Below are positions 36,824-39,369 of a stretch of 64,000 nt of DNA, in pieces. Within the stretch, counting starts at the first letter, position 1. Each line of letters begins with the position of its first letter. The notes beneath the pieces are model-generated. The model saw nothing but the letters and a program-made list of their open reading frames with translations, was not told the DNA's origin and searched no databases. Origin of the DNA: Bdellovibrionales bacterium GWA1_52_35. GTDB lineage: Bacteria > Bdellovibrionota > UBA1018. The translations under genes were made by a program, and so were the position numbers. Where the stretch lies: the NCBI GenBank assembly GCA_001769805.1, contig MEPO01000011.1:41623-105622 (forward strand), written 5' to 3'.

Positions 36824-37152
36824 GTGAATTTCAGAAAAAAGATGGATAGTCCCGTCTCTATGAAAAAAGCACTGATCACCGGCATTACCGGCCAAGACGG
36901 CTCGTATTTGGCCGAGTTATTGTTGGAAAAGGGTTACGAAGTCCACGGAATTGTTCGCCGCTCGTCGAGCTTCAACACGAAGCTCATCTCGGAGCGCAAT
37001 CGCACGTCCATATTTGAGATCCCGGAATACACCGGGGAAGCCACCGGCATGGGCACCTTGCGGCTGTTCGGCTGGAAACCAAAACGAATTTTAGGAAATT
37101 GGTTGAATTGATGGTCGAATACGACCTTGAGCACGAATCAAAGAGGCGCTGA
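36824..37152 (+). pseudogene. Remnant of a second GDP-mannose 4,6-dehydratase gene (two internal deletions plus a frameshift)
   Basis: Encodes [40 protein letters not shown], then jumps to ..[18 protein letters not shown].., then to ..GWKPK... Only after a +2 frameshift does [14 protein letters not shown] appear. Each piece aligns to the intact gmd at 16168-17172 in the same order, but about two thirds of the gene is missing. Confidence 0.7.
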
Positions 37153-38403
37153 ATGTATCAGGAAATAAATAAATGCAGAATCTGCGGCAACACGGAACTC
37201 ATTCCGGTTCTGAATCTCGGAAGTCAGGCTTTGACTGGCATTTTCCCGGAAACCAAAGAGCGCTCGGTAGGAACAATGCCGCTTGTGCTCGTCAAATGCC
37301 TGGACAAGGATCACGCGGACCGCTGCGGGCTTTTGCAGCTAAAGCATACCGGTAATCTCACTGAACTTTACGGCAAGGATTACGGCTACCGTTCTGGTCT
37401 GAACCGCTCGATGGTTCTCCACCTGCATGGTAAGGTGAAAAAAATCCTCGCTCAGACCCGCCTTACGAAAGACGATCTGGTCATCGACATTGGAAGCAAT
37501 GACAGCTCCCTTCTTCAGGCTTATCCGAACGAAGGCCTTAACCTCGTCGGGATTGATCCTACAGGCGTGAAGTTCAGCAAATATTATCCCGCTCATATCC
37601 AGCTTATCCCGGATTTTTTCTCAGCCGCCAAGGTTCAGGAAACTTTTGGAAACCGTAAAGCCAAAATCGTCACTTCCTGCTCGATGTTCTATGACCTGGA
37701 AGATCCGATGGCCTTCATGCAGCAAGTTCACGACGTCCTGGACGAACAGGGAGTTTGGGTCTTTGAACAGAGCTACATGCCGACGATGCTCGAACGCAAC
37801 TCGTACGATACCGTCTGCCATGAGCACCTCGAATATTACGCTCTGAAGCAGATTCAGTGGATGGCAGAGCGCGTGGGGCTCAAAATCCTGGATGTCGAAT
37901 TCAACGACATCAATGGCGGCAGTTTCTCGGTTACGGTTGCGAAGAAGGGTTCGGCCACCCAGCCCAACTCCGCCCGGATCAAGCAGATCCTGCAGCAGGA
38001 GCACGAGCTGGGCCTGCACACCCTGAAGCCTTACGAGGAATTCAAGACCCGCGCTTACAAACAACGTGATGAACTTCTGGCTTTTATCCGAAAGGCCAGT
38101 GCCGAGGGTAAAACTGTCTTCGGCTACGGCGCCTCAACCAAAGGTAATGTGCTTCTTCAGTTCTGCGGTCTTTCGGAAAAGGACCTTCCCTGTATCGCTG
38201 AAGTGAATCCGGATAAGTTCGGCTGTTTCACGCCGGGCACCCTGATTCCCATCACCTCCGAGCAGGAAGCCAAGAAAATGAATCCCGATTACTTTCTGGT
38301 CCTGCCGTGGCATTTCCGGGACAATATTCTGGCTCGTGAACAGGAATACCGCAACAATGGCGGTCAGTTTCTTTTCCCCCTGCCGCACGTCGAAGCCGTT
38401 TAA
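37153..38403 (+). CDS. NDP-hexose C-methyltransferase (TylCIII/EvaC-like: Zn-ribbon, SAM-MTase and C-terminal C-methyltransferase domain)
   Basis: Has an N-terminal CRICGN..(x)..C..C zinc-ribbon, a central VIDIGSNDSSLL..LVGIDP SAM fold and a C-terminal ..VFGYGASTKGNVLLQF... (Methyltransf_14-like). 416 aa. Confidence 0.75.
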   Translation: MYQEINKCRICGNTELIPVLNLGSQALTGIFPETKERSVGTMPLVLVKCLDKDHADRCGLLQLKHTGNLTELYGKDYGYRSGLNRSMVLHLHGKVKKILAQTRLTKDDLVIDIGSNDSSLLQAYPNEGLNLVGIDPTGVKFSKYYPAHIQLIPDFFSAAKVQETFGNRKAKIVTSCSMFYDLEDPMAFMQQVHDVLDEQGVWVFEQSYMPTMLERNSYDTVCHEHLEYYALKQIQWMAERVGLKILDVEFNDINGGSFSVTVAKKGSATQPNSARIKQILQQEHELGLHTLKPYEEFKTRAYKQRDELLAFIRKASAEGKTVFGYGASTKGNVLLQFCGLSEKDLPCIAEVNPDKFGCFTPGTLIPITSEQEAKKMNPDYFLVLPWHFRDNILAREQEYRNNGGQFLFPLPHVEAV

Positions 38404-38406
38404 GTC

Positions 38407-39369
38407 ATGAGAACCGCCCTGATTACCGGCAGCCAAGGACAGGACGGCAAGCTTCTGTTCGAGCTTCTCAAGAGCAAGGGTTATGGCGTGCTTGGCCTCG
38501 ACCTGAATAAAACGGAGGCACATGGAGTTCAAATTCCACTACCTGCCTCAACTGATCTGACCATCAGCAAAGAGGTAATTGCCCTGGTTGCACAATTCCA
38601 ACCGGATGAAATCTACCACCTTGCAGCGGTACATCATTCTTCGGAGGAAAACTCCTCCGAGAATGCCTCGGCATTCCGCCGGGCTTATGAGGTCAATTTT
38701 TTTGCGCTGATTAACCTGCTTGAGGGTGTGCGCCTGCATTCACCGCAGACCCATGTTTTCTACGCTGCGTCTTCACATATTTTTGGCCATTCTGAAGCGG
38801 ATATCCAGGACGAATCCACCCCGCTCAATCCTGACTCGCCTTACGCATTTTCAAAAGTCGATGGACTTCAGGCCAGTCGACTTTACCGCAGCAAGTATGG
38901 AATTCATGCCTCAGTCGGTATTTTGTACAATCACGAATCAGAATATCGGGCTTCAAAATTTCTATCCAAAAAAATCACCTCCGCCGTCGTTAGAATTAAT
39001 AACGGAAGCAACGAGAAATTGACGCTAGGCGATCTTTCGGCGGTGATCGACTGGGGCTACGCCCGGGACTATGTGGAGGCAATGCACAGAATCAACACAC
39101 TCACGGAATCACCGGAGTCCGATGATTTCATTGTTGCTAGCGGCACGCGGCACACCGTCGAGGACTTTGTACAAACGGCCTTTCGTCATGCCGGTCTGGA
39201 TTGGCGCTCGCATGTTGTTGAAAACCCTTCTTTGCTTGGCCGCCGTAATCCGCTCCGAATTGGCAACCCTGTAAAATTAATGAAGCGGACAGGCTGGACG
39301 CCTTCCGTATCCTTCGAGCAGATGATCAAATTGCTGTTGATATCCGAAGGACTTCCAATTGATAAATGA
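38407..39369 (+). CDS. Gmd/Rmd-family short-chain dehydrogenase (GDP-4-keto-6-deoxyhexose reductase-like)
   Basis: ALITGSQGQDGKLLFELLKSKGY is Gmd-like. SPYAFSKVDG..LY is the YxxxK region. YNHESEYRASKF is present and no dehydratase-type insertion is seen. 320 aa. Confidence 0.75.
   Translation: MRTALITGSQGQDGKLLFELLKSKGYGVLGLDLNKTEAHGVQIPLPASTDLTISKEVIALVAQFQPDEIYHLAAVHHSSEENSSENASAFRRAYEVNFFALINLLEGVRLHSPQTHVFYAASSHIFGHSEADIQDESTPLNPDSPYAFSKVDGLQASRLYRSKYGIHASVGILYNHESEYRASKFLSKKITSAVVRINNGSNEKLTLGDLSAVIDWGYARDYVEAMHRINTLTESPESDDFIVASGTRHTVEDFVQTAFRHAGLDWRSHVVENPSLLGRRNPLRIGNPVKLMKRTGWTPSVSFEQMIKLLLISEGLPIDK

Follow-up and report, generated by a model that had tools for sequence, protein, structure and literature searches.

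In a 64,000-nt stretch of the genome of the Bdellovibrionales bacterium GWA1_52_35 (contig MEPO01000011.1; hereafter the window, meaning this whole stretch), the remains of a gene for a guanosine diphosphate (GDP)-mannose 4,6-dehydratase, here called gmd2, lie immediately before the genes for a sugar C-methyltransferase and a Gmd-like reductase, and an intact gmd, here called gmd1, is found about 20 kb away. This locus raises the question whether a pathway for a branched 6-deoxyhexose has outlived its own dehydratase or is on the way to being lost, and on which nucleotide sugar it acts. The source is an uncultured bacterium from Rifle aquifer groundwater, and an earlier note on the same DNA had described the remnant and its two neighbors. 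Our analysis indicates that a four-gene cassette has recently lost gmd2, that this was most likely tolerated through gmd1 and that the rest of the pathway is probably working.

The gmd2 remnant and the age of its loss

Positions 36824-37152 had been taken for a gmd remnant with its blocks in native order, and every block named at that time was recovered. A tblastn search with the intact Gmd (encoded at 16168-17172) against positions 36701-37300 gave an E-value of 2e-27, and the 83-amino-acid (aa) open reading frame (ORF) at 36860-37111 matched the Pfam family PF16363 (E 3e-19) and, over positions 1-44 only, the TIGR01472 'gmd' model (E 1e-24; 87 bits, below the equivalog cutoff of 415). The lesions were mapped against two intact orthologues, L007:2310-3308, from the closest relative recovered, and L008:6985-8001, from Bdellovibrionales RIFOXYC1_FULL_54_43, whose C-methyltransferases are 87 and 74% identical to that of the window, respectively. 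The map was built by short-word local alignments and offset arithmetic; a global DNA alignment to the L007 gmd scattered the 3′ half. Four deletions of 103, 5, 615 and 1 nt were identified, which together remove 724 of 1017 nt (71%) and leave 293 nt, the exact length of the remnant at 36860-37152 on the forward strand.

Compared with the L007 and L008 orthologues the remnant consists of five blocks, all on the forward strand. Block A (36860-36982) holds codons 1-41 with the Rossmann GxxGxxG motif and is identical to L007 in its amino acids. It is followed by a net deletion of 103 nt, which by itself is not in frame, and by block B (36986-37015), 10 residues of codons ~77-86 that are read out of frame and had been overlooked in the earlier note. 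The 5-nt deletion, located ~30 nt past the 103-nt one, puts gmd2 back in frame, and block C (37013-37069) carries 18 residues of codons 88-106 in the original frame. Next comes the deletion of 615 nt, that is 205 codons, which removes orthologue codons 107-311 in frame and has its junction inside an R-L-L tripeptide; the intact L007 orthologue has this tripeptide on either side. The last stretch (37070-37152) reads GWKPK, loses 1 nt in the A run at 37081-37084, most simply from A5 to A4, and continues with a C-terminal tail of 22 residues in the shifted frame; its native stop codon, TGA at 37150-37152, is directly followed by the ATG of the C-methyltransferase gene. This 1-nt loss is the frameshift that had been placed before the last block. 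Two large in-frame deletions had also been described; this is correct for the 615-nt deletion, whereas the 103-nt deletion is frameshifting until the 5-nt deletion restores the frame.

The motifs SSSE (position 122, orthologue numbering), YGVAK, matching YxxxK (147), and NHESPRRG (176) all fall within the deleted codons. As all the catalytic motifs are gone, the gmd2 enzyme is dead. A Shine-Dalgarno-like sequence, AAAGAGG (37140-37146, forward strand, read from the sequence), lies inside the gmd2 tail 6 nt before the C-methyltransferase ATG, and the tail may perhaps survive for this site and for the stop/start junction of the C-methyltransferase gene.

As regards the origin of the remnant, L007 shows the same gene order as the window, namely rmlD and rmlC, followed by the gene for a membrane protein of 450 aa, a gmd encoding 332 aa and the genes for the C-methyltransferase, the reductase and a glycosyltransferase family 2 (GT2)/methyltransferase. 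In L007, L008 and L011 (Oligoflexia) a full gmd stands directly before the C-methyltransferase gene, with stop and start overlapping or abutting (within ~13 nt), so that the order of gmd, C-methyltransferase and reductase, proposed earlier as the order of the pathway, is the ancestral order of the cassette. The retained blocks are 79% identical in nucleotides and 87% in amino acids to the L007 cassette gmd, compared with 68.5 and 80% to gmd1, and the intact cassette Gmd proteins are ~70% identical to the gmd1 product. Since an intact gmd occupies the same position in L007, the remnant is the orthologue of the cassette gene and not a copy of gmd1; the earlier note had rightly called it an old paralogue and not a recent copy. 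Its descent from gmd is supported by the position shared with the L007, L008 and L011 genes in addition to sequence identity.

Between blocks A-C and L007 we counted 36 synonymous and 4 non-synonymous differences (proportions of differing sites pS 0.72 and pN 0.026), and for block A alone 22 and 0, respectively; in the genes flanking gmd2 the synonymous sites are saturated between the window and L007. From the 36 against 4 differences and the saturated neighbors it follows that gmd2 was under purifying selection nearly all the time since the split from L007, and this pattern indicates an old paralogue whose inactivation is recent. The age of the paralogue is not the age of its inactivation, and 'old', as used before for this gene, applies to the paralogue only. 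The decay of gmd2 is the ordinary loss of a redundant gene, a textbook case. The pseudogene, minor in itself, reveals the former content of the cassette, which included a gmd; in close relatives this gene is still there, abutting or overlapping that for the C-methyltransferase.

The three intact genes downstream

The gene at 37153-38403 (forward strand) encodes an intact 416-aa nucleoside diphosphate (NDP)-hexose C-methyltransferase of the TylCIII/EryBIII/TcaB9/MtmC type, in agreement with the TylCIII/EvaC-type assignment made before. The profile search suggested for it returned PF08421 (Methyltransf_13, zinc-binding; E 6.5e-12) and PF08484 (Methyltransf_14; E 3e-56), together with PF13489 (Rossmann fold binding S-adenosylmethionine, SAM; E 1e-12), and the protein aligns end to end with MtmC (PDB 4rv9, E 3e-60) and TcaB9 (3ndi, E 4e-51). 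Over 18 homologues there is no variation at C8, C11, C49 and C58, at D112-D117 (DIGSND, the glycine-rich motif for SAM binding) or at H223-E224-H225; the four cysteines and the H-E-H motif we take to be the zinc-binding and catalytic residues known from TcaB9. The enzyme would act at C-3 of an NDP-4-keto-6-deoxyhexose, which its Gmd-family gene partners and its placement in a tree of homologues suggest to be GDP-linked.

The next gene (38407-39369, forward strand) encodes a 320-aa short-chain dehydrogenase derived from Gmd, a predicted GDP-4-keto-sugar 4-reductase. It matched PF16363 (E 2e-67) and TIGR01472 with 192 bits, below the cutoff of 415, and among solved structures it is closest to Gmds (1rpn, E 1e-57; 2z1m, E 1e-52); its similarity to solved Rmds is much weaker (2pk3, E 1e-18; 6x3b, E 9e-11), and Rmds are not its closest relatives. 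Thr126-Ser127-Glu128 of Pseudomonas aeruginosa Gmd is aligned to Ser-Ser-His, so that the SS...YxxxK of a short-chain dehydrogenase is present and the dehydratase glutamate is absent. In Gmd this glutamate is the acid/base for dehydration. Across 30 family members encoded directly downstream of a C-methyltransferase the glutamate position is occupied by H, L, K, A or C, whereas YxxxK and NHES...R...SxK are kept. The Rmd-like reductase of the earlier note is thus no Rmd orthologue; the loss of the glutamate, the Gmd ancestry and the gene position after the C-methyltransferase suggest instead a Gmd offshoot that has kept the binding of NAD(P) and of the GDP-sugar and would only reduce the 4-keto group.

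Two other roles were considered for this protein. As a replacement dehydratase for gmd2 it was rejected, given the change of Glu to His and the 192 bits against the required 415, and a function of the His as the acid/base of an epimerase is unsupported, as the position varies in the family.

The earlier reading had ended the pathway at 39369; the cassette, however, continues with a GT2 domain of the polyprenyl-phosphate glycosyltransferase-like kind fused to a class I SAM methyltransferase (39383-40855, forward strand; PF00535 and PF08241). Every NCBIfam match of this protein lies far under its cutoff. The best PDB match of the GT2 domain is the dolichyl-phosphate-mannose (Dol-P-Man) synthase of Pyrococcus furiosus (5mlz, E 5e-20), with GtrB and ArnC next. 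In Dol-P-Man synthase, GtrB and ArnC alike, the sugar of a nucleotide donor is passed to polyprenyl phosphate, and the best solved homologue uses GDP-mannose. All three downstream genes are full length, with a low pN (0.07-0.13) in the comparison with L007.

The cassette is flanked by two polytopic membrane proteins with no Pfam family, one of 456 aa (35438-36808, forward strand; syntenic with L007:906-2258, 66% identity) and one of 492 aa (40845-42323, reverse strand; convergent with the GT2/methyltransferase gene), the latter being conceivably a periplasmic transferase. No partner GT-C transferase for the GT2 protein was identified by homology. The 64-kb window contains in total ten large polytopic membrane proteins of 456-635 aa (7282-8952, 10578-12470, 12754-14391, 35438-36808, 40845-42323, 42396-44300, 44309-46102, 46029-47681, 50881-52788 and 52816-54531), eight with no Pfam family and two DUF2079, which look like an unusual concentration of candidate transferases or polymerases for lipid-linked sugars.

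The module in other bacteria and in described systems

Our survey of the module covered L007, L008 and 80 loci from species-representative genomes, 82 in total. Homologues of the C-methyltransferase with at least 60% identity are abundant across phyla. At 30 of the 82 loci the glutamate-less reductase gene lies immediately downstream, and 17 of these 30 also have the GT2/methyltransferase. The module occurs in Bdellovibrionota, Omnitrophota, Planctomycetota, Verrucomicrobiota, Chloroflexota, Bacteroidota, Elusimicrobiota, Saccharibacteria and cyanobacteria, and its cultured carriers include Spirulina subsalsa FACHB-351 (L064) as well as Anaeroselena agilis (P0097). Its steps are tied together by fusion proteins, which join C-methyltransferase and reductase in Falkowbacteria (L046:1423-3624, 733 aa), reductase and GT2 in an uncultured Bdellovibrionales (L041:7328-9019, 563 aa) and GT2 and C-methyltransferase in protein P0078 (660 aa).

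C-methyltransferase-reductase loci flanked by 3 kb or more on each side number 19; only four of them have a true gmd within 6 kb and 15 have none. No alternative 4,6-dehydratase was seen among ten sampled neighbors of the module. Since the adjacent gmd is usually missing, the loss of gmd2 is no sign of a dying pathway, and supply of the gmd product in trans would be the usual arrangement of the module. It had been proposed that the step is now supplied in trans by the gmd at 16 kb or that the pathway is being lost; a distant gmd is unremarkable in this light, and loss is not signaled by it. Similarly, the product had been called an unusual envelope sugar, which holds for its chemical rarity, whereas the genes are common in metagenomes.

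A second architecture was observed in Betaproteobacteria and relatives (L019, L020, L022, L026-L028, L030, L032, L034, L035 and L072), where a Gmd-like protein of 320-335 aa, 41-49% identical to Gmd, is encoded ~1 kb upstream of the C-methyltransferase; it has the motif FCQASSSE, with the glutamate kept in most cases, and a true gmd of 360-380 aa often lies 1-4 kb further upstream. The GT2/methyltransferase gene of L002 is split, which was considered as a case of pathway decay and rejected, the split being due to a scaffold gap with an N run. Such runs in public assemblies (L002:8938-9006, L003:1954-2032, L007 near 3280) produce spurious split or X-containing genes, for example this gene and the L007 gmd at its 3′ end.

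The pathway is an uncharacterized, widespread variant of nucleotide-sugar C-methylation, and among described systems it comes closest to a GDP route to virenose (6-deoxy-3-C-methylgulose), a sugar of the Coxiella burnetii O-antigen. That route was proposed in silico and comprises Gmd (CBU_0689), a methyltransferase resembling TylCIII and an epimerase/reductase resembling Fcl (PMC3539893); according to a 2026 preprint this pathway is still not fully characterized (PMC13252051). Both routes, as proposed, comprise 4,6-dehydration of GDP-mannose, SAM-dependent methylation at C-3 by an enzyme of the TylCIII family and reduction of the 4-keto group, and lead to an envelope sugar. Instead of an Fcl-like reductase, however, the window has a Gmd derivative that lacks the catalytic glutamate, its cassette has, in addition, the Dol-P-Man-synthase-like fusion of GT2 and methyltransferase, and the cassette gmd is no longer functional. 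As for the sugars themselves, 3-C-methylrhamnose (evalose), termed rare, is found in the O-polysaccharide of Burkholderia andropogonis (PMC7203242) and 3-C-methylmannose in some O-antigens of Helicobacter pylori (PMC12961483).

The single enzymes also resemble known ones, each with a difference. The C-methyltransferase shares with TylCIII, EryBIII, AviG1, MtmC and TcaB9 the three domains (zinc-binding N-terminus, Rossmann SAM domain and PF08484), with full-length E-values of 1e-50 to 1e-60. The antibiotic enzymes, however, act on thymidine diphosphate (dTDP)-linked substrates, often 2-deoxy or 3-amino sugars, in the secondary metabolism of actinomycetes, whereas that of the window belongs to a clade tied to Gmd-family genes in envelope clusters of many phyla. 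The reductase, as a short-chain dehydrogenase of the Gmd superfamily with a predicted NAD(P)H-dependent C-4 reduction of a GDP-4-keto-6-deoxyhexose, is comparable to Rmd or the bifunctional Gmd of the GDP-D-rhamnose pathway, but it is a separate Gmd offshoot with weak similarity to the solved Rmds. The GT2 similarity and the adjoining polytopic membrane proteins, including the two DUF2079, recall the Dol-P-Man synthase, GtrB and ArnC/ArnT-type systems; unlike in these, the GT2 is fused to a SAM methyltransferase and the donor would be a C-methylated 6-deoxyhexose.

Proposed substrate and present function of the cassette

The candidate source of GDP-4-keto-6-deoxy-D-mannose in trans is gmd1 (16168-17172, forward strand), which scores 557 bits with TIGR01472 against the cutoff of 415 and is overlapped by fcl (17169-18137; NF047922, E 1e-142). 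We propose that the ancestral cassette comprised gmd2, the C-methyltransferase, the Gmd-derived 4-ketoreductase and the GT2/methyltransferase, and that gmd2 was lost piecemeal by the four deletions, most likely tolerated because gmd1, paired with fcl, makes the same intermediate. The C-methyltransferase would then transfer a methyl group from SAM onto C-3 of the 4-keto sugar, the Gmd-derived dehydrogenase would reduce C-4 to give an evalose-like GDP-6-deoxy-3-C-methylhexose, the GT2 domain would put the sugar on polyprenyl phosphate, with a possible O-methylation by the fused methyltransferase, and a membrane glycosyltransferase would use the lipid-linked sugar at the outer face of the inner membrane. 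In general terms, it is quite possible, though we would not put it at an even chance, that the C-methyltransferase, the reductase and the GT2/methyltransferase form a widespread uncharacterized pathway that makes GDP-3-C-methyl-6-deoxyhexose and passes it to a polyprenyl-phosphate carrier for extracytoplasmic glycosylation of the envelope.

Several points weigh against this proposal. No member of the module has been biochemically characterized, and all the characterized homologues of the C-methyltransferase (MtmC, TcaB9, the 5t64 enzyme and AviG1) use dTDP-sugars. No mannose-1-phosphate guanylyltransferase was found among the window ORFs that were scanned, several ORFs lying outside that scan. 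Apart from L007, the polytopic membrane proteins of the window have no detectable homologues beside the module in other phyla (E < 1e-5), which makes the final transfer step speculative. Moreover, the three intact ORFs do not prove present function, as the inactivation of gmd2 is too recent for its neighbors to have decayed.

The use of dTDP-sugars by the characterized homologues is also an argument for the main rival explanation, which the earlier note did not contain: the C-methyltransferase could work on dTDP-4-keto-6-deoxy-D-glucose made by RmlA and RmlB from directly upstream, and the loss of gmd2 would be irrelevant. The dTDP-L-rhamnose genes rmlB-rmlA-rmlD-rmlC (32039-35453, forward strand, identified by Pfam) and the cassette form a single same-strand string (~32039-40855), a further point against a GDP-sugar, and rml genes are also near the cassette in L007 and L040. 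The partner enzyme is, however, a Gmd derivative and not a reductase of the RmlD or TylCIV type, the nearest relatives have gmd immediately before the C-methyltransferase, and at most C-methyltransferase-reductase loci neither rmlA nor rmlB lies within 6 kb. In a neighbor-joining tree the window C-methyltransferase groups with those of L007, L008 and L011, all linked to gmd and to the reductase, and apart from the rml-linked enzymes of Streptomyces, which make up a clade of their own. Furthermore, RmlBADC is already a complete set for dTDP-L-rhamnose. On balance, we regard a dTDP-linked substrate as unlikely.

The adjacency of gmd is the strongest genetic evidence at hand that the C-methyltransferases of this large clade work on GDP-sugars. 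For Coxiella virenose, GDP-linked C-methylation has been suggested and never demonstrated, and our literature search found no paper on a GDP-linked C-methyl sugar nucleotide or on a GDP-specific sugar C-methyltransferase. If the proposal is true, the module would include the first sugar C-methyltransferase with GDP specificity, would add a new branched-sugar donor linked to a lipid and would serve as a clean genetic model for the unresolved virenose-type chemistry. As the module is present in cultured strains, the chemistry is directly testable.

It could also be that the whole branched-sugar pathway is being lost, with gmd2 as the first casualty and the downstream genes non-functional and not yet damaged. 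Four independent lesions accumulated in one gene during a period that allows at most ~4 non-synonymous changes, which fits such a scenario, and decay of the module may happen elsewhere, as the reductase of a Spartobacteria metagenome-assembled genome (L070:7531-8159) is split into two overlapping ORFs of 182 and 145 aa, by decay or sequencing error. In every assembly, nevertheless, the three downstream ORFs are intact, with a sequence that is the same or almost the same; the module usually does without an adjacent gmd; a functional gmd1 lies 20 kb away; and the gmd2 tail still holds the Shine-Dalgarno site of the C-methyltransferase gene together with its stop/start junction. This outcome does not seem probable to us, and continued function of the pathway with gmd2 replaced by gmd1 remains the preferred reading.

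The same sequence is also present in GCA_001769475.1 (MEPQ01000082), GCA_003545485.1 (DPYE01000003), JGI 3300025015 and several ENA assemblies. Positions 36809-37153 (345 nt) are identical across six independent assemblies from different samples and pipelines, which match the window with 99.8-100% identity over 8-13 kb, and in place of the full-length gmd that the earlier note had considered possible in other assemblies of the strain, they carry the same remnant. The upstream membrane-protein gene was found on 17 contigs, and at each distinct place among them it is followed by the same 83-aa call and then by the C-methyltransferase. The gmd2 lesion thus appears to be fixed in the sampled population, as judged at the level of assemblies. 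It is very improbable that the remnant arose by an error of sequencing or assembly, or that it still encodes a functional short protein: the last lesion is a 1-nt homopolymer change, a typical site of sequencing errors, but besides the agreement of the assemblies the three larger deletions are impossible as read errors, and every catalytic motif is missing.

With regard to the surroundings, the GC content at third codon positions is 41-49% in gmd1-fcl-Wzy_C (16168-19411) and 53-66% in the string from the rml genes to the GT2/DUF2079 genes (31940-47681), so that the two sugar clusters may have separate histories; this gives a weak hint that gmd1 came later and made gmd2 redundant. A scan of 35300-41000 for promoters and terminators gave nothing above the shuffled expectation. 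Finally, a 406-aa ORF on the reverse strand (30781-32001) with a marginal HNH endonuclease match (E 3e-4) lies between a zinc alcohol dehydrogenase gene and rmlB, and marks the left edge of the rml/C-methyltransferase gene string.

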